DNA of 60,081 bases, taken from positions 26,688 to 86,768 of the forward strand of contig DAINBU010000006.1 of the NCBI GenBank assembly GCA_036732755.1, read 5' to 3'. The notes beneath the pieces are model-generated. The model did not search any database and was not told where the DNA came from. It worked only from the letters and a program-made list of their open reading frames with translations. The stretch's first letter is position 1. The number at the start of each line of letters is the position of its first letter. Positions 7,476 through 32,505 of this stretch are shown here, in pieces. Position numbers and translations under genes: made by a program. Origin of the DNA: Planctomycetota bacterium. Lineage in GTDB: Bacteria > Planctomycetota > B15-G4 > SIAN01.

Positions 7476-8009
7476 TCACTTCTCGACGTCGTTCCCTTCG
7501 AAGAGGGTGATCACGCGGTTCTCGAGACTGCCCGGCCGCTGGAGGTGGACCGAGGCGGTGAGGCGCAGGGCGTCCTTGGGACCCGTGAAGCTCAGGACGA
7601 CGCTCTCGAGGAAGCGCTGGCCGACTTCGAGCTCGGGCAGCAGGCCCGGGAAATGGGCCGAATCGACGGGGAGCTCGACGGTTCCGAGCGGCGGAATCGA
7701 GACGCCGACGAGGTCGCTGTCGTGAGCAAGGACTTCGGAGAGCCCGTTCGGGCCCATCGCGAGGACGTCGCCGAGGACGAGCGTCCGCGTCATGCTCTTG
7801 TTGACGAGGAAGAGCGTCGTGTTGGTCTCGTCGTGGTTGCCGTCCAGGTCGATGTACTGGGCGCGGACCTGCATGGTGTGCCCGTTGCCGTGGTCGGCGG
7901 GGGCCGCGGCCGCTGCCGCGCTCGCTCCCTGCGTGTGGCTCAGGAGGGCCGAAGATCCGACGAAGAGCACGGGGAGAAGCACGAAGAGCAGCGCGCGCCG
8001 TCGGGTCAT
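7476..8009 (-). CDS. Hypothetical secreted protein
   Basis: A 177-aa ORF with a clear signal peptide (MTRRRALLFVLLPVLFVGSSALLSHTQGASAAAAA). The mature part has mixed composition. I recognise no family. Confidence 0.5.
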   Translation of the reverse strand: MTRRRALLFVLLPVLFVGSSALLSHTQGASAAAAAAPADHGNGHTMQVRAQYIDLDGNHDETNTTLFLVNKSMTRTLVLGDVLAMGPNGLSEVLAHDSDLVGVSIPPLGTVELPVDSAHFPGLLPELEVGQRFLESVVLSFTGPKDALRLTASVHLQRPGSLENRVITLFEGNDVEK

Positions 8010-8142: not shown

Positions 8143-9399
8143 TCAGCGCAGCCCGAACGGGATCAGCCAGCGCCGATCGGCGCCGGCGCGCGTGAGCAGG
8201 ATCGACAGCACGCCCGGCGCGCCCGTGAGCAGCGACCGGTCGGCGCCCATTCCTTCCACATAAGAGAGGTTGCGGAGCAGCAGCTCTTCCAGGAGCCTCG
8301 CCTTCCGCGCGGCTGCGGGAAGACCCGCACTCCGTTCAAAAGCGTCCGCGAGCGCGAGCATCCCCGCGATCCCGTGGCAGAGGCCGATCTGCTCCGGAAC
8401 GTCCGCCGCGCGATCGACGCCGGGCTCGACGCGCTCGCACCACGACTCCATCGCCGCGAGCGCGAACGTCGTGACGTCGCTCCTGCCGAGGACGCGCCCG
8501 CTCTCCCACAGCGCCCACGCGATGCCCGGCGTCCCGTAGCACCACGCCTGCGGCGACGGCGCCCGCGAGCTCGGCGCGTCGCCGTCGAGGCTCGCGTGCG
8601 GCCAGGCCCGCAGGCCGGTCCGGTCGACGTACGACCGGGCGACGAGCCAGTCGGCGATGCGCGCGAGCGCGACCCGGGCCCGCGTCGTCGGTGCGACGCC
8701 GTGCCCGAGCGCCGCCGCGAGCGCGAGCGCCACGCCCGCGACTCCGTGCGCGACGCCGGTATTGATCCGCCCCTCGCCCCACTTCAACCGCGGGTCGTCC
8801 TGGTCGCGGCCGAGCCGGAATGCCGCGAGCTCGTCGTCGCAGAGCGCGAGGAGCTGGCGCACGCACTGCTTCGCCAGCCGGCGCCGCGGCTGCGCGCCCG
8901 GCGCGTCGAGCCGCCCCGATGCGACGAGAGTGAGAAGCAGGCCAGCGGGTCCGCGGACGAGGTCGTAGTCGAACCAGCGGACCTCCTTCGACCGCCAGCA
9001 GTCGCGCGGCAGCGCCTCCGCGATCTGCTCCCACAACGACGCACTCACGCGCCGCAGCCGCGGCACGGTGCGCATCGCGAATGCGAGCCCCGACAGCGGA
9101 CCGGTCGGACCAAATTCGAGCGCGCCGGACCGGAGCGCCTCGCTCAGCCGCTCGAGCCAGCGCTCGACCACGCGCTCGTGGACGGGACCGCCGAAGCGTC
9201 CGGCGGCGAGCGCGGCGAGCACGAGCGGGCCGGGATCGCAGGTACCGCTCGACGGCTCGAGCTTCCCCTCGCCGTCTCCGTCGCCGGCGCAACGGTCGAG
9301 CGTCCGCCGGACGAGCGAACGCAGATCGCGATCAGGACGGTCGCGCCGCGGAGCGGCCCTCGTGACCGCAGCGGCCCCTCGCGCAGCGCGACCGTTCAT
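8143..9399 (-). CDS. lanC: LanC-like lanthionine cyclase (standalone)
   Basis: A 418-aa ORF carrying the three LanC zinc/catalytic motifs in order: GVAHGVAGVALALA (GxAHG), WCYGTPGIAWAL (WCxG), and GLCHGIAGMLALA (CHG). It begins 7 nt after the stop of precursor gene 1. Confidence 0.8.
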   Translation of the reverse strand: MNGRAARGAAAVTRAAPRRDRPDRDLRSLVRRTLDRCAGDGDGEGKLEPSSGTCDPGPLVLAALAAGRFGGPVHERVVERWLERLSEALRSGALEFGPTGPLSGLAFAMRTVPRLRRVSASLWEQIAEALPRDCWRSKEVRWFDYDLVRGPAGLLLTLVASGRLDAPGAQPRRRLAKQCVRQLLALCDDELAAFRLGRDQDDPRLKWGEGRINTGVAHGVAGVALALAAALGHGVAPTTRARVALARIADWLVARSYVDRTGLRAWPHASLDGDAPSSRAPSPQAWCYGTPGIAWALWESGRVLGRSDVTTFALAAMESWCERVEPGVDRAADVPEQIGLCHGIAGMLALADAFERSAGLPAAARKARLLEELLLRNLSYVEGMGADRSLLTGAPGVLSILLTRAGADRRWLIPFGLR

Positions 9400-9406
9400 C
9401 CGCGGC

Positions 9407-9586
9407 TCAGTAGCCGTGGCAGTGGCCGCTGGGCCCGCAGAAGAAGTAGGTACTGCCGCAGTTTTGCGTCCCCTTGCCGCCCTTCGCCGGGGCGATCCGC
9501 TCTTCGAGCTTCTCGATGAGGAAGCGCTTCCGTTTCACGACGTCGTCGGACTTCGGAGCTGGGGCACGGATGTTCTTCGAGGACAT
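9407..9586 (-). CDS. Lanthipeptide precursor peptide 1 (59 aa)
   Basis: The internal start MSSKNIRAPAPKSDDVVKRKRFLIEKLEERIAPAKGGKG forms the leader. The core is TQNCGSTYFFCGPSGHCHGY (3 Cys, 4 Ser/Thr, C-terminal Tyr). The conserved 5'UTR CCCGAAGGGAGAAC-GACATG is shared with the other two copies. The 93-aa ORF upstream of this ATG is a frame extension. Confidence 0.75.
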   Translation of the reverse strand: MSSKNIRAPAPKSDDVVKRKRFLIEKLEERIAPAKGGKGTQNCGSTYFFCGPSGHCHGY

Positions 9587-9759
9587 GTCGGTTCTCCCTT
9601 CGGGTTTCGGGCAGCGACTCGGCGAGGGAGACGACACTGCCCGCTCCGATCGAAGGTCGATTCGCCGCCGCGGGCCGGAACGGATCACGACGGTCGCGCC
9701 GCGGAGCCGTCCTCACGACTGGAGCGGCCCCTCGCGCGGCGCGACCGTTCTTTCGCGAC

Positions 9760-9936
9760 TCAGTAGGCGCTGCCGCCTCCGCTGAACGACGTGCAGTTGG
9801 CGGTCCCGCAGTTGTTCGTCCCCTTGCCGCCCTTCTTCGGGGCGATCCGCTCCTCGAGCTTCTCGATGCGGAAGCGCTTCGGCTTCACGACGTCGTCGGA
9901 CTTCGGCGCCGGGACACGGACGTTCTTCGCGGACAT
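9760..9936 (-). CDS. Lanthipeptide precursor peptide 2 (58 aa; absent from the ORF track because it is under 60 aa)
   Basis: I translated it by hand from the minus strand: MSAKNVRVPAPKSDDVVKPKRFRIEKLEERIAPKKGGKG-TNNCGTANCTSFSGGGSAY. The ATG is the reverse complement of 9934-9936 and the TGA is the reverse complement of 9760-9762. It shares the leader and RBS with copies 1 and 3. Confidence 0.75.
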   Translation of the reverse strand: MSAKNVRVPAPKSDDVVKPKRFRIEKLEERIAPKKGGKGTNNCGTANCTSFSGGGSAY

Positions 9937-10051
9937 GTCAGTTCTCCCTTCGGGTTTCGGGCAGCGACTCGCCAGGGGAGACGCAACCGCCCCGTCCGAT
10001 CGAACGGCGACGCGCCGCCGCGGGGCCGCGCCCCCGCGGCCGACCGCGGCG

Positions 10052-11119
10052 TCAGTGCGCGAGCTCCCGCGCCGACCGGAGCCACCCGGCCCACGCCGAA
10101 TGGGGCACGGCGAGCCACGGCAGGAAGCCGTTCGCCTCGTCGTGGGCGGCGAGCTCGGTCGCGGCGCGGCAGCTGAGCCCGGCGACGAAGCCGGTGTAGA
10201 GCGCCTGCAGGACGCCCGAGAGCGGGAAGATCGCGTTGCCGCACGCCCAGATCCCCGCGACGCTCGTGCGCCCCCATGCGTCGGTCACGACGTAGCCGTC
10301 GCGGCAGCGGATCTTCGTCCCGCGCACGAGACGCGCCGCGTTCTGCGGGCGGAGCTTGTAGGTGTTGTAATCGAAGACGACGGCGGCGTAGTCGGCGTGC
10401 ACGCCCGCCTCGCCCGAGTTCCAGCGCGAGCGCGCCAGCGCCTGCGTGGAGCGGCGCAGCGCCGCGGCGTGCGAGCCGTCGCCCGCGCCGAGCCGGCGGT
10501 CGAGCGCGCCCGCGCTCCCGTTCCCGCCGTCGTCGAGCGCCGTCTCGATCGCGAGCGCGCGCGTCGCGGCGCGGAAGCGCTCCGCGGTCGCCTCGACCGC
10601 CGGATGGCAGCCGGCGATCAGCAGCCGCTTGCGATGCAGCGTCCCGTCCGCAGCCAGTTGCTCGGCACGTTGAATGAACGCCTGCTGGCCCGGCAGCGTC
10701 TCCGCCATGAAGATCGCGTTGCGGAAGCGCAGGAAGCGCAGGTGGGAGAAGATGCCGCAGGCGACGACCACCGCCGGCGCGCGGAACGTCCCGCCCGCCG
10801 TGTCGACCGCGAAGCGGCCGCGCTCGCGGCGGATGCGCGTGGCGGCGACGCCGGAGCGCACCTCGACCGGCAGGTCGCGCAGCTGGTCGAGCAGCATCAC
10901 CTTGAGCTGCCCGCCCTTGATGATCCAGCCGTTGGTGAGGGTGAGCGTCCCGTACGCGGCGATCCCGCCGGGCCGCACGTGCTCCTCGAGGACGAGCACG
11001 CGGCCGAACCGGCTCGGCGGCGTCGACCACCACGGCGTCCCCTGCGACGCGGTGAGCGCGGCCATGAGGCCCGACGGCCCCGCCCCGATCACGATCACGT
11101 CGTGGCTCGACTCGCCCAT
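10052..11119 (-). CDS. FAD/NAD(P)-binding pyridine-nucleotide-disulfide oxidoreductase (thioredoxin-reductase-like flavoprotein)
   Basis: The internal start MGESSHDVIVIGAGPSGL gives an N-terminal GxGxxG dinucleotide fold. A second flavin motif is GIWACGNAIF. It starts 12 nt after the kinase stop and lies directly upstream of precursor 2 on the same strand. Confidence 0.65.
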   Translation of the reverse strand: MGESSHDVIVIGAGPSGLMAALTASQGTPWWSTPPSRFGRVLVLEEHVRPGGIAAYGTLTLTNGWIIKGGQLKVMLLDQLRDLPVEVRSGVAATRIRRERGRFAVDTAGGTFRAPAVVVACGIFSHLRFLRFRNAIFMAETLPGQQAFIQRAEQLAADGTLHRKRLLIAGCHPAVEATAERFRAATRALAIETALDDGGNGSAGALDRRLGAGDGSHAAALRRSTQALARSRWNSGEAGVHADYAAVVFDYNTYKLRPQNAARLVRGTKIRCRDGYVVTDAWGRTSVAGIWACGNAIFPLSGVLQALYTGFVAGLSCRAATELAAHDEANGFLPWLAVPHSAWAGWLRSARELAH

Positions 11120-11130
11120 CGGGGGCGCCC

Positions 11131-14100
11131 TCACTTCGGCGGGATCGCTTTCTCGACGTCGACCCACAGCTTCTTCCACGCCTCACGCTCGCCCGCGGGC
11201 AGCGCGGCGACCTCGTCGCGGACGCTCTTGAAGTCGGCGTCCTCCTTCCAATCCGCGAGCTTGTCCACCTTGCCGGCCGCCAGGCGCGCCGCGAGGTCGG
11301 CGCGCAGCCACTGCAGCGCGCGCCCACGCCACGCGGCGGCGTCCGGCGCCCCGCTCGCCGCGGCCAGGACGGCGGTGCACGCGGCGTTGTAGCGGTGCGA
11401 GCGGTCGAGGTCGTTCGCGAGCGACGCGTCGCTCGCGAGCGCCTTCTCGAAGAAGCGCGCCGCTTCGAGGAAGCGCTGCTTCCCGTAGAGGATGAGCGCG
11501 TACTCGAGGCGCTCCCCTTCATTGCCCGGCGCCGCCGCGCCTTTCACCACGTCCTCGAGGCGATCCTCGAACGCGATCTGCTTCTCGACCGTCGCGATCC
11601 TCTCGGCCGATTTCGCCCTCCAGCCCGGTTGCCTCGACCCGAGCTCGTGCCCCGTCTTCAGGTAGGGCAGCGCCTCGCGGTAGCGCTTCTGCATGTGGTA
11701 GAGCTGCCCGAGCAGGTAGTGCGCCTCCGCCATGCCGGGCTCGGCGTCGATCGCCGCTTTGCAGTGCGCCTCGCATTCCGCGTCGTTCTTCCCGTCGCCG
11801 TAGAGCGTCATGGCGAGGTTGCAGTGCGCGGGTGCGTTGCCCGGGTCGATCCGGATCGCGTCGTGATAGGCGGCGAGCACTTGCGCGAGTTCCTTCTTCT
11901 CGTCGAGCGCGCTGCCGAGCGAGTTGTAGGCGAGCGCCAGGGTGGTCGCGTCGTGCCTCTGCCGATCGTCGCGCTGCTCCACGACGACCGGCACCCGGTC
12001 CCGCAGGAGATCGATTGCGATGTGGAACTCCGCGATGCCGCGGGCGGGCTCGCCCTTGTGGCAGAAGGTGATGCCGAGGTTCAAGTGCGCCTCGGGCTTG
12101 TCAGGCTCGAGGTCGAGCGCCTTGGTCAGCGCCGTGATCGCGGCGTCGGTCCGTCTCGCGTCGTTGTTCGCGCGGCCGAGCTCGGTCCACGCGTCGGCGT
12201 AGTCGTCGCGGACCCGGACCGCCGCCTCGTACGCCTCGATCTCCCGGGCGCGGTCGCCCTTCATCACGTAGGCGCGTGCCTTCATGCGGAGCGCCTCGGC
12301 GAAGTCGGGTTTCACCGCCACCGCCGCGTCGAACGCCGCGATCGCGCGGTCCGGATCGCGCAGCGCAAGGAATGACGCGCCGATCTCGTAGTGCGAGTTG
12401 GCGAACTGGGGGTCGATCTTCAGCGCCTCCTGGAACGACGCGATCGCCTCGCGGTGCTTTCTCAACTTGGCGAGCACCTGGCCGAGGGAGTGGCGCCCCC
12501 GGGCGTAGTTCGGCTTGATCCGGATCACTTCCAGGTAGGCGTCGTGCGCCCCTGCGTAGTCGCCTTTGTCGCGCAGCGCGTTCCCGAGCCCGCCCCACAG
12601 GTCGGCGTCGTCCCGCCCGAATTCGAGCGCCGCGCGGCTCGTCTTGATCGCCTCGTCGAGCTCGCCGTGATCGGCGAGCGCGGAGGCGAGGTTGATGTAG
12701 GCGTGCTGGAAGCCGGGCTCGAGCTCGATCGCATGCTCGTACTCGCGGATCGCGTTCTCCCACTCCTTCATCGCGGTGTAGACGCAACCGAGGTTGAAGC
12801 GGGCGCGCGCGCTCTTCGGGGCGAGGCGGATCCCCTCGTTCGCCGCCGCCAGCGACTCCTCGAGCTTGCCCTGGAGCGCCAGCGCGATGGCGAGGTTGCC
12901 GTGCGCCTGGGTGAGCGTCGCCTCGAGCTCGATCGCCTTGCGGTACGCCGCGATCGCGTCGTCGAGGCGCCCCGCCTCCCTCAGCGCGAGGCCGCGGTTC
13001 ACGTGCGCACGCGCCGCGCCGGGATCGAGCTCGACGCCGCGGTCGTGCGATCGCACCGCCTCGCCGATCCGGCCGAGCGACACGAAGATCATCCCGCGCG
13101 CCGTCCAGGCCCACGCGTAGCTCGGGTCGACGGCGATGGCGCGCTCGTAGGCCACGAGCGCCTCCTCGAGCTTGCCCATCCCCGCCAGCACGTCGCCCTT
13201 CCCGCAGAAGCAGTTGGGGAGGTCGGGGTCGAGCTGGCACGCCGTCTCGTACTCGGCCAGCGCGTCCTGCGCCTTGCCCATGTCGGCGAGGACGTTCGCG
13301 CGATAGGTGTGGAAGGGGGCGCTCTTCCCGTCGAGCTCGAGCGCGCGGTCGTGCGCGACGAGCGCTGCGTCGAGGCGGCCGACGTCCTTCAGGACGCAGC
13401 CGCGGAAGGAGTACGCCTCCGCGAGGTCGGGCTTGGCCGTGCACGCGGCCTCGATCGCCGCGAGCGCGTCGTCGTACTTCTGCTCGTGCCAGAGCATGTG
13501 GCCGCGCTGCATGTGCGCCCAGGCGTCGGACGCCGCCCGAGCGATCCGGCCGTCGAGCAGCGCGATCGCGTCGTCGTAACGCTGCAGCGCGTGCAGGATC
13601 GTCACGCGCGTGCCGATCGACGCGGCGTCGTCGAAGTTGCGCTCGTGGAAGCGCAGCGCCGCCTCGAGCAGGCGCCGGCGCGCCGGCCGCGGGGGCGCGA
13701 GGTCGGCCATGCCGGAGATGCCGATCTCGACCAGGAACTTGTCGACCGCGGAGCGCGCGAGGAGGAGGTTGTCCTTGGCGCGGTCGAGCGCGGCCTGCGT
13801 CTGGCGCTGCTCCTTCCCGACGCGGAAGAGGTCGACGGCGAGCGCGACCAGCCCGAGCAGCAGCACGACGAAGGCGGCGGTCACGAAGCCCTTGTGGCGC
13901 CGGACCCACTTCGACGCGCGCGCCGCGACGGACGGCCGGCGCGCCAGGATCGGCTGGTCCTTGAGGTAGCGGCCGAGGTCCTCCGCCATCTCGAGCGCGG
14001 TCGAGTAGCGCGAGGAGGGGTCCTTCGACATCGCCTTCAGGACGATCGTCTCGAGGTCGACGGGGAGCGCGTCGTTCCACCGGCGCGGCGCGACCGGCTC

Positions 14101-15048
14101 CTTCTCCGCGATGTCGCGCATCACGGCCTGCGGGTCGTCGCCGGGGAAGGCGTGCTCGAGGGTCAGGAGCTCGTAGAGCGTCACGCCGAGCGAGTAGACG
14201 TCGGTGCGGTGGTCCATCGGCGCCCGCTTCGCGAGCGTCTGCTCCGGGCTCATGTAGCGGTACGTGCCGAGCAGCTCGCCCGTGACCGTGAGGTCGCCGT
14301 CGCGGAGCGTGCGCGCGAGCCCGAAGTCGGTGATCCAGAGCTCGCCCAGCGAATCGACCAGCAGGTTGCCCGGCTTCACGTCGCGGTGGACGACGCCGAG
14401 CTGGTGGGCGTGGTCGAGCGCCTCGGCGGCCTGCATGCCGAGCGCGACGGCCATCCGCACGTAGCCGGGGTCGCGGTTGGAGCCGTGCGACGTGGCCGGC
14501 GTCTTCGGCTCGGTGGCCGGCGCGCGCCCCTTCATTTCGCGGATCACGGCGGCGAGGCTCTGCCCCTCGACGAGCTGCATGGCGTAGTAGTGCACGCCGC
14601 GCTCGCAGCCGACCGCGAAGACCGGGACGATGTGGGGATGGTGGAGGTGCGCCGCGGCGAGCGCCTCGTTCTTGAAGCGCTGCAGCTGCTTGGGGTCGAG
14701 CACGGCCGCGAATGGCAGCACCTTGAGCGCGACGCGCCGCCCGAGCGAGACCTGCTCCGCCTCGTAGACGACTGCCATGCCGCCGCGGCCGACCTCGCGC
14801 ACCAGCCGGAAGTCGCCGAGGAGCTGGCGCTCGGCGAGCTCGCCCCCCTCCTTCGGAGCGTGCGGCATCTCGCGCGTCGCCCGGTGGATGAACTCGAGCC
14901 CGTCGAGGGCGGCGGCGAGCTCGGCGGCGCACTGCGGATGCTGCGCGAGCAGCTCTTCGCGCGGCGGCGCGCCACCCTGCTCGAGCGCGCGCAGGTAGGC
15001 GTCGAGGATCGCGCCGACGTTGCCGGCGCCCGTGGCGGTATCGCTCAT
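11131..15048 (-). CDS. Ser/Thr protein kinase with a long TPR-repeat C-terminal region (1305 aa)
   Basis: The real start is MSDTATGAGNVGAILDAY at 15048; the upstream 500 aa of the 1823-aa ORF is shadow. Hanks kinase motifs are present: GRGGMAVVYEA..ALKVL, HRDVKPGNLLVD, DFGLART, YMSPEQ. A TM segment (FVTAAFVVLLLGLVALAV) is followed by about 20 TPR repeats. The start overlaps the ECF sigma stop by ATGA. Confidence 0.8.
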   Translation of the reverse strand: MSDTATGAGNVGAILDAYLRALEQGGAPPREELLAQHPQCAAELAAALDGLEFIHRATREMPHAPKEGGELAERQLLGDFRLVREVGRGGMAVVYEAEQVSLGRRVALKVLPFAAVLDPKQLQRFKNEALAAAHLHHPHIVPVFAVGCERGVHYYAMQLVEGQSLAAVIREMKGRAPATEPKTPATSHGSNRDPGYVRMAVALGMQAAEALDHAHQLGVVHRDVKPGNLLVDSLGELWITDFGLARTLRDGDLTVTGELLGTYRYMSPEQTLAKRAPMDHRTDVYSLGVTLYELLTLEHAFPGDDPQAVMRDIAEKEPVAPRRWNDALPVDLETIVLKAMSKDPSSRYSTALEMAEDLGRYLKDQPILARRPSVAARASKWVRRHKGFVTAAFVVLLLGLVALAVDLFRVGKEQRQTQAALDRAKDNLLLARSAVDKFLVEIGISGMADLAPPRPARRRLLEAALRFHERNFDDAASIGTRVTILHALQRYDDAIALLDGRIARAASDAWAHMQRGHMLWHEQKYDDALAAIEAACTAKPDLAEAYSFRGCVLKDVGRLDAALVAHDRALELDGKSAPFHTYRANVLADMGKAQDALAEYETACQLDPDLPNCFCGKGDVLAGMGKLEEALVAYERAIAVDPSYAWAWTARGMIFVSLGRIGEAVRSHDRGVELDPGAARAHVNRGLALREAGRLDDAIAAYRKAIELEATLTQAHGNLAIALALQGKLEESLAAANEGIRLAPKSARARFNLGCVYTAMKEWENAIREYEHAIELEPGFQHAYINLASALADHGELDEAIKTSRAALEFGRDDADLWGGLGNALRDKGDYAGAHDAYLEVIRIKPNYARGRHSLGQVLAKLRKHREAIASFQEALKIDPQFANSHYEIGASFLALRDPDRAIAAFDAAVAVKPDFAEALRMKARAYVMKGDRAREIEAYEAAVRVRDDYADAWTELGRANNDARRTDAAITALTKALDLEPDKPEAHLNLGITFCHKGEPARGIAEFHIAIDLLRDRVPVVVEQRDDRQRHDATTLALAYNSLGSALDEKKELAQVLAAYHDAIRIDPGNAPAHCNLAMTLYGDGKNDAECEAHCKAAIDAEPGMAEAHYLLGQLYHMQKRYREALPYLKTGHELGSRQPGWRAKSAERIATVEKQIAFEDRLEDVVKGAAAPGNEGERLEYALILYGKQRFLEAARFFEKALASDASLANDLDRSHRYNAACTAVLAAASGAPDAAAWRGRALQWLRADLAARLAAGKVDKLADWKEDADFKSVRDEVAALPAGEREAWKKLWVDVEKAIPPK

Positions 15049-15695
15049 GGCATCCGCTCCTTCAGGATCCTGCCGACGCGCACGAGCGCCCGCGTCCACA
15101 GCATGCGCGCCGCGTCCGGCGAGCGGCCGGTGAGCGCCGCGATCTCCTTCCACTCGAGCTCGCGCAGGTTGCGGAGCACCAGCACCTCGCGGTCCTCGGG
15201 AGCGAGGTCGGCGAGCGCATCGGCGAGGATCACGCCGCGCTCGCGCCGCTGGGCCGACTGGCTCGGCGACCGTCCCTGCGCCTCCACCAGCTCGCGCAGC
15301 ATCTGCGACGAGCGATCGGCCTGCGACTCGAGCGACCGCTCGCGCTCGACGCGGCGCCCCTGCAGCGAGTAGCGCCGCCGCAGGTCGGCGAGGTTGTTCA
15401 CGAGGATCTGCCGGATCCACGTGATCCACTCCTGCTCGGTCGTGCCGCGGAACTTCGGGAAGTTCTGGTGCGCCTTGAGCAGCGTCTCCTGCACCAGGTC
15501 GGAGGCGTCGGCCTTGCCCTGGACGTTCCGATCGAGGCTCGTGACGGCGATGAGCCGCAGGTAGTTGCGGTACGCCTTGAGCAGTTCGCCGAGCGCCTCG
15601 GAACCGCCCGCGCGCGCGCGCCGGATGCACTCGGAGACGCTCGCCGACGAGTCGTCGATCACGGCCGATCCGTCCGGGCGTCGGGATCGTGGCAT
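15045..15695 (-). CDS. ECF (sigma-70 family, group IV) RNA polymerase sigma factor
   Basis: The internal start MPRSRRPDG lies at 15695. Region 2 (SDLVQETLLKAHQNFPKFRG) and region 4 (ILADALADLAPEDREVLVLRNLRELEWKEIAALTG) are recognisable. The stop is ATGA-coupled to the kinase gene. Confidence 0.7.
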   Translation of the reverse strand: MPRSRRPDGSAVIDDSSASVSECIRRARAGGSEALGELLKAYRNYLRLIAVTSLDRNVQGKADASDLVQETLLKAHQNFPKFRGTTEQEWITWIRQILVNNLADLRRRYSLQGRRVERERSLESQADRSSQMLRELVEAQGRSPSQSAQRRERGVILADALADLAPEDREVLVLRNLRELEWKEIAALTGRSPDAARMLWTRALVRVGRILKERMP

Positions 15696-15840
15696 GAGGA
15701 TCGGAGCATAGTCCGGCGCCGCCCCCGCGTCGGGGGTCGGTCGGTCCGCGTCGGCGGCGGCTCGCTCGTCCACATGGGAGAAGGACGATTCCGCCGCGGG
15801 CGATCGAACGTTCCGCGACGCGAACAAAAGGCGGCGTTCG

Positions 15841-16794
15841 ATGCGCCGGCGCGATGGCGTCCTTCTGCCACGACCCGGAGGCGGAACTCCGGGCGTCCGG
15901 GGGGTGACCTTGCAAGCGGACGTCGTCGCGCGGACGAAGCTGCCCCGCCTCGCCGACCGGCTCGCGCTCGGGAGCGGCGGGCTGCGCGTCAGCCCCTGCT
16001 GCGTCGGGATGGTCGAGGACCCGGCGACGATCGCGGCCGCCTTCGACCTCGGCGTGAACTTCTTCTTCGTCAGCTCCGACATGCACTGGCCGCTCTACGA
16101 GGCGGCGCGGCGCGGCCTCGAGCGGCTCCTCGCGCGCGGCGGCGCCGTCCGCGACGAGATCGTCGTCGCCGGCGTCTGCTACCCGACGCAGCCCGAGTTC
16201 TGCAGCTTCCCGTTCCGCGAGCTGGTCGACGCGGTGCCGGGGCTGGGGCGGCTCGACGTGCTGCTCGCGGGCGGCGCCTACGGCTCCGAGGTGGGCACGC
16301 GGCTCCCCGTCTACGAGCGCCATCGCGAGGAGCGCTTCCTCGGCAACCGCGCGATCGGCGTCACCTTCCACGACCGTGTGGCGGCGGCGACGGCGCTGCA
16401 GCGCGGCGGGCTCGACATCGCCTTCGTCCGCTACAACGCCGACCACGCCGGCGCGCGCGACGACCTCTTCCCGCACGTGCCCGAGCGGCCGCGGCCGCTC
16501 CTCTTCAACTTCAAGAGCACGTCGGGCTTCGTGCCGCCCGTCCGCATGGCGGAGATCGGACTCGTCGCGCCCGACTACTGGCAGCCGGAGGTCACCGACC
16601 ACTACCGGTTCGCCTTCACGCGCCCGCAGCTCGACGGCCTGCTCGTCTCGCCGCGCACGCCGCGCGAGGTCGAGGGGATCGCCGCGGCGCTCGCGCGCGG
16701 CCCGCTGACCGACGAGGAGGAGACCTACCTGATCGACGTCGCCGCGGTGGCCCGCGGCGCTGCCCGAGTCCGACCCGAAGGAGAAACGACATGA
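15841..16794 (+). CDS. Oxidoreductase-like protein (possible aldo/keto-reductase-like TIM barrel), translationally coupled to precursor 3
   Basis: A 317-aa ORF divergent from the ECF sigma gene. The alternative GTG at 15906 is also possible. The family assignment is weak (LGSGGLRVSPCCVGMV, FFFVSSDMHWPLYE). Its stop overlaps the precursor-3 ATG (ATGA at 16791-16794). Confidence 0.4.
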   Translation: MRRRDGVLLPRPGGGTPGVRGVTLQADVVARTKLPRLADRLALGSGGLRVSPCCVGMVEDPATIAAAFDLGVNFFFVSSDMHWPLYEAARRGLERLLARGGAVRDEIVVAGVCYPTQPEFCSFPFRELVDAVPGLGRLDVLLAGGAYGSEVGTRLPVYERHREERFLGNRAIGVTFHDRVAAATALQRGGLDIAFVRYNADHAGARDDLFPHVPERPRPLLFNFKSTSGFVPPVRMAEIGLVAPDYWQPEVTDHYRFAFTRPQLDGLLVSPRTPREVEGIAAALARGPLTDEEETYLIDVAAVARGAARVRPEGETT

Positions 16795-16982
16795 GCTCGA
16801 AGAACGTCCGTCCCGAGACGAACCGCAAGCCCGATCCCGACGCCGCGACGCCGCGCAAGCGCTTCCGCATCGAGAAGCTCGAGGAGCGCATCGCCCCCAA
16901 GAAGGGCGGCAAGGGGACGAACAACTGCAGTGGCAGCGCCGGAACCAGCAGCGGCACCTTCAGCTGCGGCTCCATCTACTAG
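16791..16982 (+). CDS. Lanthipeptide precursor peptide 3 (63 aa)
   Basis: Sequence: MSSKNVRPETNRKPDPDAATPRKRFRIEKLEERIAPKKGGKG-TNNCSGSAGTSSGTFSCGSIY. The RBS is GAAGGAGAAACGAC-ATG. It shares the leader, the GG box and the C-terminal Tyr with copies 1 and 2. It lies immediately upstream of lanB. Confidence 0.75.
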   Translation: MSSKNVRPETNRKPDPDAATPRKRFRIEKLEERIAPKKGGKGTNNCSGSAGTSSGTFSCGSIY

Positions 16983-20000: not shown

Positions 20001-20247
20001 GCGCCGGTCGGAGCGGAGCGCGGCCGCGCGCGCGGCGCTGCAGCGCGCGGCGGCGGACGGGAGCCTCGCCGCGCCGCTCGAGGAGATCGCGGCGGCGCTC
20101 CTCCACATGCACTGCAACCGGCTGCTGCGCGCGGCGGCGCGCACGCACGAGCTCGTGCTCTACGACTTCCTCCACCGCCACTACAAGGGACGCGTCGCGC
20201 GCGCCGCGAGCGAGCGGCGCAACGCGTCCGACGTCTACGTCGCGTAG
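17050..20247 (+). CDS. lanB: LanB-type lanthipeptide dehydratase, full length (N-terminal glutamylation domain plus C-terminal SpaB_C elimination domain)
   Basis: The N-terminal hallmark is GFFVLRAPALPF followed by LWRYLARMAGRATPFGLFG. The C-terminal elimination-domain signature is WLTVKLYGG...RWHFVRYADPHGHLRLRF...LDTYEREIERYGG. The in-frame TTG at 17050 is preceded by GGGAGGAGAGAGAGTC. The alternative ATG at 16930 would overlap precursor 3. Confidence 0.8.
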   Translation: MSSPPPTAFAPSGFFVLRAPALPFAAFAGGESGEAPREKLRRLVERPDVREALFVASPDLDARLETWRNAPDSEDGARIELSLWRYLARMAGRATPFGLFGSCSLGAIGATTHLVLGDRMRRHTRLDMDYVVLLADALARDSALRPRLRFRPNSSLYRVGERWRYHEVRREAKGWAHRRCALEAADYLDLVLARARGGATIGELVATLRERDADATEAETAEYVDALIDQQVLVSELVPAITGDEPIHDWIARLRATEGGAAAAERLEAVRDELARFDAGGPGVAPPRYRALAAELAALPAEVDVARTFQVDLSRPAPDAALGSAVVEELLRGVELLRRIAPRRNDSLANFRRAFGERFGDTPVTREVPLSEALDDETGVGDGGTDEVVSAAPILDGLELAAAEAPASFGARERHLLERVTALLQRGATEWSLSDDDVEKLAVDDPPPLPDAFAAHARIEAWSAEAVDRGEFRLLLQGASGPSGARLLGRFGHADPELADAVAGHLRAEEALRPDALFAEIVHLPEGRVGNILARPTHRRHEIPYLGRSGLPESNQIELGDLLVSVRGERVVLRSARHGCEVLPRLTTAHNYTAQPGVYRFLCGLQEQGVAGALAWSWGALANSAFLPRVTCGRLVLARAQWRVAREETVRLLEACASGRAAALAAWRAERRLPRWVCLTEGDHELPIDLDEPALVATLLAQMRSDATLTELFPAPDRLCVAGPEGRHVHEILVPFVRCAGAEAPRRVRPSPPMSNAAPAAAAARRFVPGSEWLTVKLYGGALAVDDLVRTTVGPLAVEWAAEGVAQRWHFVRYADPHGHLRLRFEGEARRLEQELLPRLRRAVAPLLDAGRLWKLQLDTYEREIERYGGPEGIVHCEELFHRDSEAIVELLRDAPTEGDGDRRWRLALLGMDRLLDDVGLDLETKRRTLLRARDAFHKEFKASDAVARQIGAKWRVESAAVARLLAPDGDEEDAWSPARAAFGRRSERSAAARAALQRAAADGSLAAPLEEIAAALLHMHCNRLLRAAARTHELVLYDFLHRHYKGRVARAASERRNASDVYVA

Positions 20248-21779
20248 CGCCCCGGCGAGAGGATCGAGCGCGGATCGCAGGCGAGCTTCAGGCGGCGGCG
20301 GAACGCCGCGTCGTCGCCGTTCGCCGCCGGCAGGAGCCGCATCGAGTTGACGCCGAGGCGATACGGGAAGAAGCCGCGGCGCGCGAGCCGGGCGTGCAGC
20401 CGGCGCGCGCAAGCGAGCGCGCGGCGGTCGTCGCGCGCGACGGCGCGGTCGAAGAAGAGCGGCACGACGAGGTGGGCGCTGCGCCCGTCGAGCGCCGTGA
20501 TCGTGATCATCGGCTCGAAGCCGCTCTCGGCGGTCGTCCGCTCGACGATGCGCACCGCCGCGGCGACGGCGCGCCCCGTCATCGGGACGACCGGGCTGCA
20601 CCAGATGGCGCCGCAGCGGTCGCGGTCGGGGTCGGGCTCGGCGGGCGGCGCGCTGCGCTTGCGCCAGTAGGTCGCGACCACGTCGCGCGAGACGCCGGGA
20701 CGGTGGAGCTCGGCCCACCCGTCGCCGCCGCGGCCGCGCAACTGCGCCTCGCGCGTGAAGACGACGCGGCCGCACGAGGCGGCGAGCGCGTCGCGCAGCA
20801 GCCGGCGCTCGGGCGCGCGGTGGCGCTCCGTCGCGTACTCGAGCGTCCCGGAGAGGGCCCAGGAGAAGGGCTTCGGCAGCAGCGCGCGCACCAGCGCGCG
20901 CGGCAGCACGCCATCGCCCTTCGTGATCGACCGCGGGTAGCGCGTCGCGGTGCTGAGCACGCGGTAGTCGTTGGTGAGCTTCACCGGGTTGCGCAGCACG
21001 CCGCGCAGCAGCAGCGGCCGCAGCGCGTCGATCGCGCGCGGCAGGTCGCGCGCGCTCCCGATCGTCGCGGCGATCCGGTCGCCGAGCTCCGGGATCGGCG
21101 AGAGCCAGAGGGTGAGGCGCGTCACCACGCCGAAGCTCGACTGGCTGAAGAGGCCGTCGACCCACGGGCCGACCCCCCAGCGATGGAGCGGCGCCGCCGT
21201 GGCGCCCGGCAGGCGCGCGAAGCCGGTGCGCACGCATTCGCCGGTCGGCAGCACGACCTCGAGCCCGCAGACGCCGTTGAAGCGGTCGCCGAGCGGGCCG
21301 TGGCCGAGCCCGCGCTCGAGGGCGTTGGCGAGCGGGCTCGTGTCGGGCGTGCTGCCGGTCGGGTTGGCGTGGAGCCGCGAGCGGCGCCGCCGCAGGAAGG
21401 CGTGGAGCTGGCGGAAGGTGACGCCCGGCTCGAGCGTGACGTAGCCGAGGCGCTCGTCGAACTCGACGATCCGGGACATCCGGGCGAGTTCCATCACGAC
21501 CGCGCCGTCGCGCACCGGCACGCGCGAGCCGTAGCCCCAGTTCTTGCCGCAGCTCACCGGATGGATCGGGACGCGGAAGCGGCCGGCGATCCGCAGGCAC
21601 GCCTGCACTTCGAGGCGCGACGCAGGGCGGAGCAGCGCCGGGATGCGCTGCGCGGTCTGGAAGGTCGCGCGCTCCGCCGAGCGCCGCGCCGCCGCCGCGG
21701 TCACGACGTGGGCGTCGCCGAGCGCCCGCCTCCAGAGGCGGAGCGCCGCCTCGAGCCGGGCGCGACGGGAGTGTTTCAC
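20235..21779 (-). CDS. FAD-linked oxidase (PCMH-type FAD-binding domain)
   Basis: The lower part of the 1389-aa minus ORF shows the FAD_binding_4 motif VPIHPVSCGKNWGYGSRVP..GAVVMELARMSRIV. The in-frame GTG start is at 21779 (VKHSRRARLE); no in-frame ATG is available. It is convergent with lanB and overlaps it by 13 nt. Confidence 0.65.
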   Translation of the reverse strand: MKHSRRARLEAALRLWRRALGDAHVVTAAAARRSAERATFQTAQRIPALLRPASRLEVQACLRIAGRFRVPIHPVSCGKNWGYGSRVPVRDGAVVMELARMSRIVEFDERLGYVTLEPGVTFRQLHAFLRRRRSRLHANPTGSTPDTSPLANALERGLGHGPLGDRFNGVCGLEVVLPTGECVRTGFARLPGATAAPLHRWGVGPWVDGLFSQSSFGVVTRLTLWLSPIPELGDRIAATIGSARDLPRAIDALRPLLLRGVLRNPVKLTNDYRVLSTATRYPRSITKGDGVLPRALVRALLPKPFSWALSGTLEYATERHRAPERRLLRDALAASCGRVVFTREAQLRGRGGDGWAELHRPGVSRDVVATYWRKRSAPPAEPDPDRDRCGAIWCSPVVPMTGRAVAAAVRIVERTTAESGFEPMITITALDGRSAHLVVPLFFDRAVARDDRRALACARRLHARLARRGFFPYRLGVNSMRLLPAANGDDAAFRRRLKLACDPRSILSPGRYAT

Positions 21780-22007: not shown

Positions 22008-24389
22008 GTGCCCGTCGCCGCCCCGCCGCTCCCGCCCCGCCGCAGCGACCTGCGGGTCGAGCCGTTCGGCGAGAAGGGCGAGCACGTGGTGAAGGACCCG
22101 CGCTCGGGCGACTTCTTCCTGCTCGGGCAGCGCGAGCACTTCCTCCTGCTCCAGCTCGACGGGGAGCACAGCGCGACGGCGGTGCGCTCCGCCTACGAGC
22201 GGCGCTTCGAGGAGCCGCTGACCCCGGGCGACCTCGACGACTTCCTCGTGACCGCGGGCGAGCAGGGGATGCTCGCGACGTCGGCGCCCCCCGCCGCGCC
22301 GGCGAAGCAGAGCCTCCTCTTCTTCCGCAAGTCGCTCTTCGATCCCGACCGCCTCTTCACGCGCATCGAGCCGAAGCTGCGCTGGATCTGGACGAAGACG
22401 TTCCTCGTCCTCTCCGCGGTCGCGATCGCGGGCGGGGGAATGCTCCTCTTCGCGAACCGGGACGACCTGGTGGCGAGCCTGCGCGACTCGCTGCGCTGGG
22501 AGTCGCTCCTGGTCGGCTGGTTCGTGGTCGCGCTGCTCGGCGTGCTGCACGAGTGCTCGCACGGACTCACGTGCAAGCACTTCGGCGGCGCCGTCCACGA
22601 GATCGGCGCGCTCTTCCTCTACTTCACGCCGTGCTTCTACTGCAACGTCTCCGACGCGTGGCTCTTCAAGGAGAAGCGCAAGCGCGTCTGGGTCATGCTC
22701 GCCGGCGGCCACTGCGACCTGCTGGTCTGGGCGCTCGCGGTGGTCCTGTGGCGCGTCGCCGAGCCGGGCACGTTCATGAGCCGCGTCTCCTTCCTCGTGG
22801 TCGGGATCTCCGGCCTCGACACGCTCTCCAACTTCAACCCGCTCCTCAAGCTGGACGGCTACTACCTGCTCTCCGACTGGAAGGAGCTGCCGAACCTGCG
22901 GCAGCGCGCGCTCGAGCGCGCGGGAGCGCACGCGCGGCGCGTCCTGTGGGGCGCGGCCCCACCCGTCGCCGACACGAGCGGGCGCTTCCTCACGGCCTTC
23001 GGGCTGCTCACCTGGCTCTTCTCCGCGACCTTCCTGGTCGCGGCCGTCACGATCGGCGCGCGCTGGCTCCACGAGGTCGGCGGCGCCGCCGGCTACGTCG
23101 CGGCGGTCCTGCTCGCGCTGCCGGCCGTGCTCGCGTCGATCCGAGGCATTTCCGGTGGCGAGGTCACCCGCATGATCACCAAACGACGAATCCGGGCGTT
23201 CTGCTGGCTCCTCGCCCTCGTCGGCCTGGGCGCCGCGAGCGTCTTCTGGCGCGTCGACGAGTACTCCGGCGGGAGCTTCACGGTCCGCCCCGCCGTCCAC
23301 GCGGAGGTGCGCGCCCCCGTCGCCGGCTTCCTGCGCGCCGTCGCGGCGCAGGAGGGCGATCGCGTCGGCGCCGGCGACCTCGTCGCGCGCCTCGAGGTGC
23401 CCGACCTCGACTGCCGGATCGAGCAGAAGCGGGCCGAGCTGCGCGAGGCGAAGGCGCAGCTCTCGCTGCTCGAGACCGGGACGCGCCCCGAGGAGATCGT
23501 CGAGCAGCGCGGCCGCGTCGCGCGCGCCGGGCGCTGGCGCGACCTCGCGGCCGACGAGCTCACGCGGATGCGGAACGCCTTGACCGAGGAGCTCGCCGCC
23601 TTCGAACAGCGCCTCGCCGAGGCGCAGGTGCAGGTCGAGGCCTCCGACCTGCGCCACGACCGGATCGCGAAGCTCGCGGACGACGGCCTCGTGAGCCGCG
23701 AGGAGCTCGAGAGCGCCGACCAGGCGCGGCGGATCGCGCGGGCACGCCGCTCGGTCGTGCAGGCGGAGAAGCGCGCGCGCGAGTCGAGCGGGACGATCGA
23801 GGGCGAGGTCGAGCTGGCGCGCCGCGAGCGCGAGCTCGGCGACGAGACGTCGCGGCTCGCGCTGCTCGAGGCGGGCGCGCGGCCCGAGGAGCTCGCGGCG
23901 CAGCGGGCGCGCGTCGAGCGGCTCGGCGTCGAGCAGGACCACCTCGAGGCGCTGCAGCGGCGGCTCGAGGTCGCGAGCCCGGTCGCCGGCGCGATCGTGA
24001 CGCCGCGCCTGCGCGAGCGCGTCGGCCAGTACCTGCGCGAAGGCGACCCGATCTGCGTGGTCGAGGAGCACTCCGCGCCGGTGGCGGAGATCGCGCTGGA
24101 CGAGGAGAAGCTGCGCGGCATCGAGCTCGGGCAGCGCGTCGCGTTCAAGATCCGGGCGCTGCCGTTCACGACGCTCGAGGGGCGCGTCGTGCGCCTGGCA
24201 AGCTGCGCAGCGCGGGAAGACGGGCGCGCGCAGGGGACGGTGCTGGTGCACTGCTCGATCGACGGCGCGCCGCCGCTGCTGCGCACCGCGACCAGCGGCT
24301 ACGCGCGCATCTACACGGGGGAGCGACCCGTGGGAGCGGTCGTGCTCGACGCCGCGCTGCGGCTGTTCCGGACGGAGTTCTGGTGGTAG
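22008..24389 (+). CDS. Fusion protein: PqqD-like RiPP recognition element, site-2-protease-like M50 zinc metalloprotease and HlyD-family membrane-fusion domain
   Basis: The N-terminus is LRVEPFGEKGEHVVKDPRSGDFFLLGQREHFLLLQLDGEHSATAVRSAYERRF (PqqD/RRE-like). Then come TM helices with HECSHGLTCKHFGG (HExxH) and further polytopic helices. The C-terminal roughly 380 aa carries a HlyD-like coiled coil (LEVPDLDCRIEQKRAELREAKAQL...) and a beta-barrel. The start is GTG at 22008. Confidence 0.7.
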   Translation: MPVAAPPLPPRRSDLRVEPFGEKGEHVVKDPRSGDFFLLGQREHFLLLQLDGEHSATAVRSAYERRFEEPLTPGDLDDFLVTAGEQGMLATSAPPAAPAKQSLLFFRKSLFDPDRLFTRIEPKLRWIWTKTFLVLSAVAIAGGGMLLFANRDDLVASLRDSLRWESLLVGWFVVALLGVLHECSHGLTCKHFGGAVHEIGALFLYFTPCFYCNVSDAWLFKEKRKRVWVMLAGGHCDLLVWALAVVLWRVAEPGTFMSRVSFLVVGISGLDTLSNFNPLLKLDGYYLLSDWKELPNLRQRALERAGAHARRVLWGAAPPVADTSGRFLTAFGLLTWLFSATFLVAAVTIGARWLHEVGGAAGYVAAVLLALPAVLASIRGISGGEVTRMITKRRIRAFCWLLALVGLGAASVFWRVDEYSGGSFTVRPAVHAEVRAPVAGFLRAVAAQEGDRVGAGDLVARLEVPDLDCRIEQKRAELREAKAQLSLLETGTRPEEIVEQRGRVARAGRWRDLAADELTRMRNALTEELAAFEQRLAEAQVQVEASDLRHDRIAKLADDGLVSREELESADQARRIARARRSVVQAEKRARESSGTIEGEVELARRERELGDETSRLALLEAGARPEELAAQRARVERLGVEQDHLEALQRRLEVASPVAGAIVTPRLRERVGQYLREGDPICVVEEHSAPVAEIALDEEKLRGIELGQRVAFKIRALPFTTLEGRVVRLASCAAREDGRAQGTVLVHCSIDGAPPLLRTATSGYARIYTGERPVGAVVLDAALRLFRTEFWW

Positions 24390-27314: not shown

Positions 27315-27364
27315 CACGACCCTCCTCCTTCGTTGCGCACGACGGTCACCTCCTCGGTCACGGA

Positions 27365-29823: not shown

Positions 29824-29993
29824 CTCGGCCCCTTCTCCTCGGCGAAGGAGCGCAGCGTAGCACACCCCTGGCCTGCGTCGATCTCGTGGAGCGAAGCCGC
29901 CTCGCGCTCGAGCCCGCGGTCGTGCGCGACGCGGCGCCGCGCGCCGGAAGTCGCCGCCGGATCGCCCGCGAATCCACGACGGGACGCGCGCGT

Positions 29994-32387: not shown

Positions 32388-32505
32388 GCGATGGCGTCTC
32401 CGATGCGGACTCGGCGGACTCGGCGCATCTTGCGCGCCTCCGATCGGCGTCGATGATGGCGGCCCGCCCCCTCGTGCGTTCCGCTCATCGTGAAGGAGCG
32501 ACCCC

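Follow-up and report, generated by a model that had tools for sequence, protein, structure and literature searches.

A candidate peptide family from uncultured Planctomycetota with a conserved leader and a mostly aromatic C terminus, encoded beside class I lanthipeptide enzymes and a VAO-like flavoenzyme

The stretch of DNA analyzed here (the window) comprises 60,081 nucleotides of about 72% G+C from a Planctomycetota bacterium (assembly GCA_036732755.1, contig DAINBU010000006.1, positions 26,688 to 86,768 of the forward strand); its genes were called by G+C content at third codon positions (GC3) and then assigned by family scans. Between about 7.5 and 24.4 kb, the window carries three small genes, A1, A2, and A3, together with genes for a lanthipeptide dehydratase (LanB), a lanthipeptide cyclase (LanC), three oxidoreductases, and a 793-amino-acid (aa) fusion protein (Table 1). 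Jointly with the mechanism set out below, and with confidence slightly better than even, we regard A1 to A3 as paralogous precursors of an undescribed family of peptides that are made on ribosomes and modified after translation (RiPPs) from Planctomycetota that is built on class I lanthipeptide machinery. Their terminal tyrosine is probably converted by a co-conserved flavoenzyme to a peptide end that would be new to lanthipeptides.

Table 1. Features of the precursor cluster (positions are those of the window)
Feature	Position	Strand	Description
177-aa protein	7476-8009	-	Predicted signal peptide; conserved beside LanC; no family match
LanC cyclase, 418 aa	8143-9399	-	Pfam LANC_like 1.6e-21; starts 8 nt past the A1 stop
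Precursor A1	9407-9586	-	59 aa, end ...SGHCHGY; leader ...KRFLIEKLEERIAP, core AKGGKGTQNCGSTYFFCGPSGHCHGY
Initiation region of A1	9587-9611	-	CCCGAAACCCGAAGGGAGAACCGAC, Shine-Dalgarno sequence GGGAG
Precursor A2	9760-9936	-	58 aa, end ...SGGGSAY; leader ...KRFRIEKLEERIAP, core KKGGKGTNNCGTANCTSFSGGGSAY
Initiation region of A2	9937-9961	-	A1 sequence with 1 mismatch
Thioredoxin-reductase-like (TrxR-like) FAD protein, 355-375 aa	10052-11119	-	Pfam Pyr_redox_2, DAO; PDB TrxR 8e-8
Ser/Thr kinase with tetratricopeptide (TPR) repeats, 1305 aa	11131-15048	-	Family scans
Extracytoplasmic function (ECF) sigma factor	15045-15662	-	TIGR02984 Sig-70_plancto1, 7e-58, above cutoff
Aldo-keto reductase (AKR)-superfamily-like protein, 296-317 aa	15841-16794	+	Weak profile and fold matches
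Initiation region of A3	16766-16790	+	GAGTCCGACCCGAAGGAGAAACGAC, within the AKR-like open reading frame (ORF)
Precursor A3	16791-16982	+	63 aa, end ...FSCGSIY; core KKGGKGTNNCSGSAGTSSGTFSCGSIY
LanB dehydratase, full length, 1065-1105 aa	17050-20247 (ORF opens 16930)	+	Lant_dehydr_N 2e-165, Lant_dehydr_C 1e-62
VAO/PCMH flavoenzyme, 4-phenol-oxidizing subgroup	20235-21779	-	FAD_binding_4 4e-21; convergent with LanB
793-aa fusion: PqqD-like RiPP recognition element (RRE; about aa 10-90), HExxH intramembrane metalloprotease, HlyD/RND-adaptor-like domain	22008-24389	+	

All three precursors carry KRF[RL]IEKLEERIAP[KA]KGGKGT[NQ]NC and a C-terminal tyrosine, and their cores contain 4 to 9 Ser/Thr residues, 2 to 3 Cys residues, and a conserved T-x-N-C. 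An earlier note on this DNA had described three ORFs with a common leader, a terminal tyrosine, and a common initiation region, all of which we recovered in the sequence; the search for further copies that it had proposed was run as a six-frame motif search of the window and yielded no fourth copy. Its description of the ORFs as lanthipeptide-type precursors is borne out by the adjacent LanB and LanC, the conserved leader, and the hypervariable cores. A1 is identical to database entry P0010 and has orthologues ending in ...HCHGY in two related loci (L005 and L009); A2 is identical to P0001, which is present on at least 24 metagenome contigs; and A3 belongs to a subtype ending in ...SSGxxSxGSI[YF] that adjoins LanB in four related loci (L005, L045, L109, and L111). 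Related species have clusters that keep the gene order of this one and hold 3+3 precursors. Scans of the precursors against Pfam and NCBIfam at E values up to 10 returned no family, nor did they match the N-terminal export motif of planctomycetes. The idea that the terminal Tyr or Phe mimics an outer membrane beta-signal recognized by BamA was rejected, as the S-I-Y and S-x-[YF] ends lack the alternating hydrophobic pattern of that motif.

A protein search with A2 found at least 200 small homologues, and a metagenome scan with six-frame extraction produced 260 distinct cores behind a leader of the A1-to-A3 type. All members of the family come from uncultured Planctomycetota. The contigs identical or nearly identical to the window are from soil metagenomes, and the related genomes in the genome collection scan were metagenome-assembled genomes (MAGs) of uncultured Planctomycetota, Gemmataceae, and Planctomycetaceae; no cultured organism with the family was found in that scan. 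The leader, RF[RQ]I[EV]KLEERIAP, is nearly invariant, and the cores are hypervariable. Terminal-residue statistics were taken from the GGxGT subfamily of 136 cores, which includes A1 to A3. Here the last residue is Tyr in 102 cores (75%), Phe in 26 (19%), Trp in 1, and Thr in none, whereas Tyr and Phe together make up 2.5% of inner positions (inner Tyr, about 1%); a binomial probability for these ends overstates their significance because the sequences are related. The invariant terminal tyrosine of the earlier note thus holds for A1 to A3, while across the family the end is aromatic, more often Tyr than Phe, with rare GIGD, GPTN, and NSDG ends. In 96 of the 136 cores, the residue two before the last is Ser, which gives an S-x-[YF] end, and 79 contain a single Cys, that of T-x-N-C. 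Aromatic ends recur in many lineages, also outside the GGxGT subfamily, as in the ...TTIY, ...GGFY, and ...ASFF ends of L106 and L107. A literature search returned nothing that matches the family (LEERIAP gave irrelevant matches only), and for lanthipeptides in Planctomycetes it returned genome-mining counts only, with no characterized ribosomal product of any kind from the phylum.

Several relatives depart from this pattern. In L106 (10001-20609) and on the P0250 contig, the precursors lack Cys altogether and end in ...TTIY, ...GTIY, or ...DTIY, and clusters of this type hold additional JmjC_2, carbamoyltransferase, and Asn-synthase-like genes. L107 contains 10 precursors and an O-methyltransferase. 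Trp is a frequent terminus in Cys-rich relatives that have no oxidase nearby (L048 and L064). Tandem arrays of as many as eight genes (L013 to L015, L088, L095, and L098 to L104) combine the LEERIAP leader with Cys-free, Pro/Asn/Gly-rich cores, such as SNANFPPGQFPSGNPA...PSND and TILQVNGGGNIPNGNANGVP...GQNK, none of which ends in an aromatic residue. These cores, whose chemistry must be of another kind, cannot be lanthipeptides, and because they share the leader, the leader is a general module rather than one specific to LanB and LanC. The only recognizable neighbor of these arrays is the protein with RRE, M50, and HlyD parts.

This 793-aa protein was the most widespread neighbor of leader-bearing peptides in general when cluster proteins were compared by tblastn with 108 loci, being found in 21 loci, the Cys-free classes included. 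Its residues 14 to 374 match the daptide_HExxH family of NCBIfam (NF041824) with an E value of 3.5e-63, covering 361 of the model's 379 positions, although the score of 214 bits lies under the family cutoff of 300. It carries the motifs HECSH and NPLLKLDG, has a weak M50 match, and has a C-terminal half that resembles HlyD/RND adaptors (resistance-nodulation-division; Pfam HlyD_3). Its first 90 or so residues share 36 to 40% identity with the C-terminal domain of haem oxygenase-like (HO-like) proteins in related loci, and that domain in L107 has a weak PqqD match just under the Pfam cutoff. In the published account of daptides, an RRE is fused N terminally to a site-2 protease, the several precursors of each cluster carry the leader motif ELExMEAP with Pro at position -1, and an invariant C-terminal residue is oxidatively decarboxylated. 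When KLEERIAP was compared with the published daptide logo, the two had L(-7), E(-6), A(-2), and P(-1) in common. The earlier note had placed the end of the leader at the GGKG box, which these results do not support: because conservation in the wider family stops at ...ERIAP, the protease resembles the daptide type, and no C39 double-glycine peptidase is present, the GG box is probably not the leader end. The boundary between leader and core would instead lie at or just after ...IAP, and KKGGKGT[NH]NC is more likely a conserved core start than a double-glycine leader end.

The best PDB matches of the VAO-like enzyme were the 4-phenol oxidoreductases nsVAO (2e-72), VAD (1e-64), p-cresol methylhydroxylase (PCMH, 4e-57), and eugenol oxidase (EUGO, 9e-53), and its top 33 PDB matches (2e-72 to 1e-42) were all VAO, PCMH, EUGO, VAD, or nsVAO. 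The phenolate-binding Tyr of its GYG motif (GKNwGYG) and its C-terminal YR align with nsVAO and VAD, and we take these residues to be equivalent to Tyr108, Tyr503, and Arg504 of VAO. A homologue search showed a sharp break, with 10 clusters at 62% identity or more and all others at 50% or less. All nine contexts seen for the clade at or above 62% identity were clusters of this type (among them the window, L010, L037, L106 at 67%, L109 and L111 at 77%, L112, and the P0250 contig at 62%), and a homologue at 48% identity lay in an unrelated neighborhood. Along its full length, the enzyme also shares 45% identity with AEQ20295.1 of "uncultured bacterium CSLG7," presumably one of the environmental-DNA clones selected for N-acyl-tyrosine synthesis. 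The C-terminal tyrosine of a peptide is itself an N-acyl-tyrosine with a free carboxylate.

Enzymes of the VAO/PCMH type take a hydride from the carbon beside a para-substituted phenol to give a p-quinone methide, through which they hydroxylate or dehydrogenate 4-alkylphenols. CndG, from chondrochloren biosynthesis, and FeeG, both in the 4-phenol-oxidizing subgroup, convert an N-acyl-tyrosine by oxidative decarboxylation via the quinone methide to a hydroxystyryl amide (review PMC11350588). It is because of this chemistry and the confinement of the VAO-like clade to the cluster that we infer the terminal tyrosine to be a modification site, a role that the earlier note had raised as a possibility and that gains support from the co-conserved enzyme and the CndG/FeeG precedent. 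No report of a VAO/PCMH enzyme that decarboxylates the C-terminal Tyr of a RiPP was found in the literature, where a search for VAO together with RiPP gave a decarboxylation review only. In L112 (2231-4839), the VAO-like gene is followed 18 nt on and on the same strand by a TrxR-like gene, an order which hints that the two proteins work together.

The terminal residue varies with the neighboring enzymes. Precursors with AKR-like, LanB, or VAO-like genes nearby end in Tyr (34), Phe (4), or another residue (2), and those with Cupin_8 and/or an HO-like protein bearing an RRE (HO-like-RRE) nearby, but none of the former three, end in Phe (12), Tyr (3), or another residue (1). The split by neighbor type has a Fisher p of 2e-6 per peptide and 3e-5 per locus, but since the loci are phylogenetically related rather than independent and many are short contigs, this covariation is supportive and not decisive. 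Phenylalanine cannot form a quinone methide. Its pairing with iron oxygenases fits a terminal aromatic residue that serves as the substrate, with the type of enzyme following the residue. Phe-ended precursors of the GGKGT type (...SSGLSSGSIF) occur in L007 (10001-12621) and in L036, L044, L050, L059, L068, and L097. Directly 3' of them lie genes for a Cupin_8 protein (JmjC-like, HxD...H) and a Haem_oxygenas_2-like protein that carries a PqqD-like RRE at its C terminus, and no LanB or LanC is encoded within 10 kb. Comparison of the HO-like-RRE proteins with NCBIfam gave no match to the daptide protein DapB.

The earlier note had counted three oxidoreductases nearby, and three are indeed encoded (the TrxR-like, AKR-like, and VAO/PCMH proteins), the last one beyond the span that it covered. 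The AKR-like protein of the window has no Pfam match. Its homologues at 55% identity or more form more than 120 clusters, two homologues carry PF00248, and it adjoins LanB in 20 loci. Its profile matched only aldo-keto reductases in the PDB, and weakly (5e-4); its AF2 model has a pLDDT of 73.5, and the top Foldseek matches are all AKRs (1.5e-9; TM about 0.5). In L108 (2146-10867), an AKR-like protein of 55% identity stands beside a distant LanB and LanC and precursors with a different leader, ...KKLTNTSDLTGTVGG, whose cores end in Ser (4 of 5) or Ala (1 of 5); the AKR-like protein may therefore be a general partner of LanB. The TrxR-like flavoprotein, found in 16 related loci, lacks a CxxC redox center. 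One possibility for these two proteins is that they reduce dehydro residues or further process an oxidized terminus. In hominicin, a flavin reductase makes D-Ala. A literature search for AKRs with class I lanthipeptides found none.

Taken together as a pathway, these parts suggest the following course. The RRE of the 793-aa protein and the leader-binding region of LanB would recognize the L-E-x-x-x-A-P leader. LanB would dehydrate Ser and Thr, and LanC would close at least the Thr-x-Asn-Cys ring and, where more Cys residues are present, further rings; as most members have a single Cys, we propose that much of the core is left as dehydro residues, for whose reduction the flavoprotein or the AKR-like enzyme might serve. 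The VAO-like enzyme would then oxidize the C-terminal Tyr by taking a hydride from its C-beta, and the resulting p-quinone methide would drive loss of CO2 to leave a C-terminal 4-hydroxystyryl amide, as with CndG and FeeG and in parallel to the aminovinyl-cysteine made by LanD. The membrane protease would cut the leader at or just after ...IAP, the HlyD-like part could hand the product to an exporter, and the ECF sigma factor and Ser/Thr kinase pair would regulate the cluster. Unmodified and cut after IAP, the cores have calculated monoisotopic masses of 2663.110 (A1), 2366.038 (A2), and 2555.138 (A3); each dehydration would remove 18.011 Da, with at most 4, 6, and 9 of them, respectively, and the predicted change of the last residue a further 46.005 Da (CO2 + 2H).

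Several points weigh against this reading. No chemistry was observed, and we infer what the product is, where the leader is cut, and on what each oxidoreductase acts. The likeness to CndG and FeeG is drawn from the description of the subgroup, the match to the daptide protease family falls short of its cutoff, and the covariation draws on related loci. The organism of L005 and L037 has a VAO-like gene and yet encodes Phe- and Asn-ended precursors beside LanB, so that Tyr is not obligatory. Finally, the association with LanB is wider for the AKR-like and TrxR-like proteins than for the VAO-like enzyme.

Two other readings of the terminal residue draw on some of the same facts. It is unlikely, though worth weighing, that the terminal aromatic residue stays unmodified and serves for recognition or anchoring, by the protease or exporter, an immunity protein, or the target membrane, while the VAO-like enzyme acts on another substrate or residue. 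The interchange of Tyr, Phe, and occasionally Trp at the end, the Phe- and Asn-ended precursors of the VAO-bearing genome, and the Trp ends of Cys-rich relatives that lack nearby oxidases would all agree with such a role. It accounts less well for the restriction of the VAO-like clade to this cluster type in every context seen, for the need of the VAO subgroup for a para-substituted phenol when no Tyr but the terminal one is conserved, and for a Tyr/Phe split that tracks the type of neighboring oxidizing enzyme. A rather improbable variant keeps the VAO-like enzyme on the terminal Tyr with another outcome, either benzylic hydroxylation or a ketone followed by action of the AKR-like enzyme (daptide-like, through a beta-keto acid) or capture of the quinone methide by a Cys, Ser, or Lys side chain as a new cross-link. 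The quinone methide that VAO/PCMH hydroxylations and dehydrogenations share leaves room for it, as do the tight coupling of the AKR-like gene to the precursors, the Ser conserved two residues before the terminus, and the daptide precedent of beta-hydroxyl oxidation followed by decarboxylation. However, the only characterized members of the subgroup that act on N-acyl-tyrosine yield the decarboxylated styryl product, and the AKR-like protein also accompanies LanB where cores do not end in aromatic residues (L108).

The shared initiation region of the three precursors also admits more than one reading. Directly before the ATG of A1 to A3 stands CCCGAAGG(G)AGAA(C)NGAC, and the feature common to the whole family is an AAGGAG Shine-Dalgarno (SD) sequence 6 to 8 nt before the ATG. 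An alignment of the three units runs from about 30 nt before the ATG to about 20 nt beyond the stop, with the core as the least conserved part; moreover, the 3' flank of A2 (9733-9759, minus strand) repeats the start of lanC in decayed form (ATGAACGGTCGCGC to AAAGAACGGTCGCGC; compare 9380-9406), and GAACGGTCG likewise follows A3. With upstream region, gene, and 3' flank all shared, the precursors have therefore spread as a cassette whose core diverged fastest, and the common initiation region is that of a duplicated cassette with a strong SD. The earlier note had seen in it an argument for co-regulated translation and had treated the sequence before the third copy as a 5' untranslated region (UTR). 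The sequence is conserved there, but it is the 3' end of the AKR-like ORF and not a UTR, and the case for co-regulation is weak, since cassette duplication explains the identity and no significant RNA structure was found. A3 may be translationally coupled to the AKR-like gene, within whose coding sequence its upstream region lies and whose stop overlaps its start as ATGA at 16791-16794.

A dedicated regulatory element at this place, for instance an SD-sequestering RNA switch that co-regulates the three precursors, is very unlikely. CCCGAAGG(G)AGAA is common to the three genes and their orthologues in L005, and an upstream TCTCCCT in A1 and A2 pairs with the SD in some predicted folds; yet the folding energies resemble those of shuffled controls (z from -1.0 to +0.7) and so lend no support to an SD-sequestering hairpin in the A1 and A2 5' UTRs. 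The coding sequence before A3 has no anti-SD, the rest of the family has nothing beyond AAGGAG at its usual spacing in common, and conservation that reaches the 3' flank is what a duplicated cassette would leave. A scan of 9300-10100 for sigma-70 promoters and terminators found nothing meaningful. A noncoding block of about 45 nt (TTCGATCGGA...GTCGTCTCCC...GAGTCGCTGCCCGAAAC) lies upstream of A1 (9612-9660) and A2 (9962-10010) on the minus strand and is conserved in the related species of L005; it includes the TCTCCCT anti-SD, which has no folding support. The block might contain a promoter for the ECF sigma factor of the cluster.

Among the other genes of the cluster, LanC carries the motifs GVAHGVAG, WCYG, and LCHG, which we take to hold the conserved His and the Cys-Cys-His zinc site known from NisC. 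The Ser/Thr kinase with TPR repeats, a probable regulator, is kept together with the ECF sigma factor in L005, L010, L037, and L106, and the 177-aa protein may have an immunity or accessory role. No ABC transporter was found among the window proteins by Pfam and NCBIfam scans. In L109 (1160-1939) and L111 (7818-8567), a 249- to 259-aa protein with an ILDLCSGSGGP motif, similar to S-adenosylmethionine (SAM)-dependent methyltransferases, is encoded between the VAO-like and RRE/M50/HlyD genes; it is absent from the window. Outside the cluster, the window has genes for multihaem cytochromes and for unrelated functions. Positions 24426-31469 hold multihaem c-type cytochromes, including a 980-aa MtrC/MtrF-like and a 527-aa NapC/NirT-like protein, that are probably unrelated to the cluster; PCMH-type dehydrogenases use cytochrome acceptors. 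At 36681-39404 (minus strand), a 907-aa protein combines N-terminal sigma-70 regions 2 and 4 with a long C-terminal part that has a CarboxypepD_reg domain.

We read the cluster as a class I lanthipeptide variant with daptide-like leader processing, for which flavin-dependent oxidative decarboxylation, or another benzylic oxidation, of the terminal Tyr is a credible prediction. Like the nisin and epidermin systems, it has a full-length LanB with glutamylation and elimination domains, a LanC with zinc-ligand motifs, Ser/Thr/Cys cores, and a conserved leader that holds an F-x-I/L-E/D box and, close to its end, a Pro, and the conserved Thr-x-x-Cys would give a four-residue ring like ring B of nisin. 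Unlike them, it has no LanP/subtilisin or LanT/C39 exporter but the RRE/site-2-protease/HlyD fusion, mostly single-Cys cores with a nearly invariant aromatic terminus, and three co-conserved oxidoreductases, none of the LanD or known LanJ type. With daptides (MpaA to MpaP) and hominicin it has in common several precursors per cluster, a leader that would likewise end in Ala-Pro (ELExMEAP versus KLEERIAP), a probable fusion of an RRE to an intramembrane HExxH protease (as judged from the sub-cutoff NF041824 match at 3.5e-63), and an invariant residue at the C terminus, which undergoes oxidative decarboxylation in daptides and may do so here; hominicin further combines daptide features with Ser/Thr dehydration and a flavin reductase. 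In contrast to daptides, the terminus is Tyr or Phe and not Thr, LanB replaces the LanM domain, and the protease has an additional HlyD-like half. Pfam and NCBIfam scans, in which the ORFs at 31560-32564 and 28384-29865, like some short ones, matched no family, found no aminotransferase, methyltransferase, iron-dependent alcohol dehydrogenase or short-chain dehydrogenase (Fe-ADH/SDR), or DapB-type DUF-RRE protein among the window proteins.

The VAO-like enzyme falls with CndG and FeeG in the 4-phenol-oxidizing subgroup, and its proposed substrate and product, an N-acylated Tyr with a free carboxylate and a hydroxystyryl amide, would correspond to theirs, although their known substrates are small acyl-tyrosines from polyketide synthase/nonribosomal peptide synthetase (PKS/NRPS) or N-acyl synthase pathways. 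Conversion of an invariant C-terminal residue to an enamine-type terminus is also the work of LanD/EpiD (in aminovinyl-cysteine formation), MftC (mycofactocin), and ZjuDC (plant cyclopeptide alkaloids), the last two with a C-terminal Tyr as the substrate and a (hydroxy)styrylamine-type intermediate or product. Those enzymes are, respectively, a flavoprotein of the HFCD family, a radical SAM enzyme, and an iron/2-oxoglutarate-dependent (Fe/2OG) enzyme, whereas the candidates here are a VAO/PCMH enzyme for Tyr and, in the Phe-ended relatives, the Cupin_8 protein of Fe/2OG type and the HO-like-RRE protein. As in the prochlorosins, where ProcM serves many ProcA peptides, one conserved leader precedes many hypervariable cores and there are several precursor genes per genome; the prochlorosins differ in their class II enzyme, Nif11-type leader, and cyanobacterial hosts, and the leader described here also precedes Cys-free Pro/Asn-rich cores.

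The cluster combines parts that have so far been treated separately, namely, class I enzymes, a daptide-type RRE protease with an export adaptor, and a flavoenzyme of the CndG/FeeG type. More tentatively, and with less than even confidence, the family may represent a new RiPP class or lanthipeptide subclass, defined by a C-terminal (hydroxy)styrylamide (made by VAO/PCMH on Tyr and by Cupin_8 and/or HO-like-RRE proteins on Phe) and by a phylum-wide RF-x-I-x-KLEERIAP platform that is read by the RRE/site-2-protease/HlyD fusion and also serves Cys-free cores. The prediction is directly testable as a mass shift at one defined residue. If true, it would add a fourth enzyme family to those responsible for C-terminal decarboxylation of RiPPs, with the terminus as the tyrosine analogue of aminovinyl-cysteine, and the Planctomycetota would possess a leader/RRE pair with an extremely broad tolerance for different cores, useful for peptide engineering.

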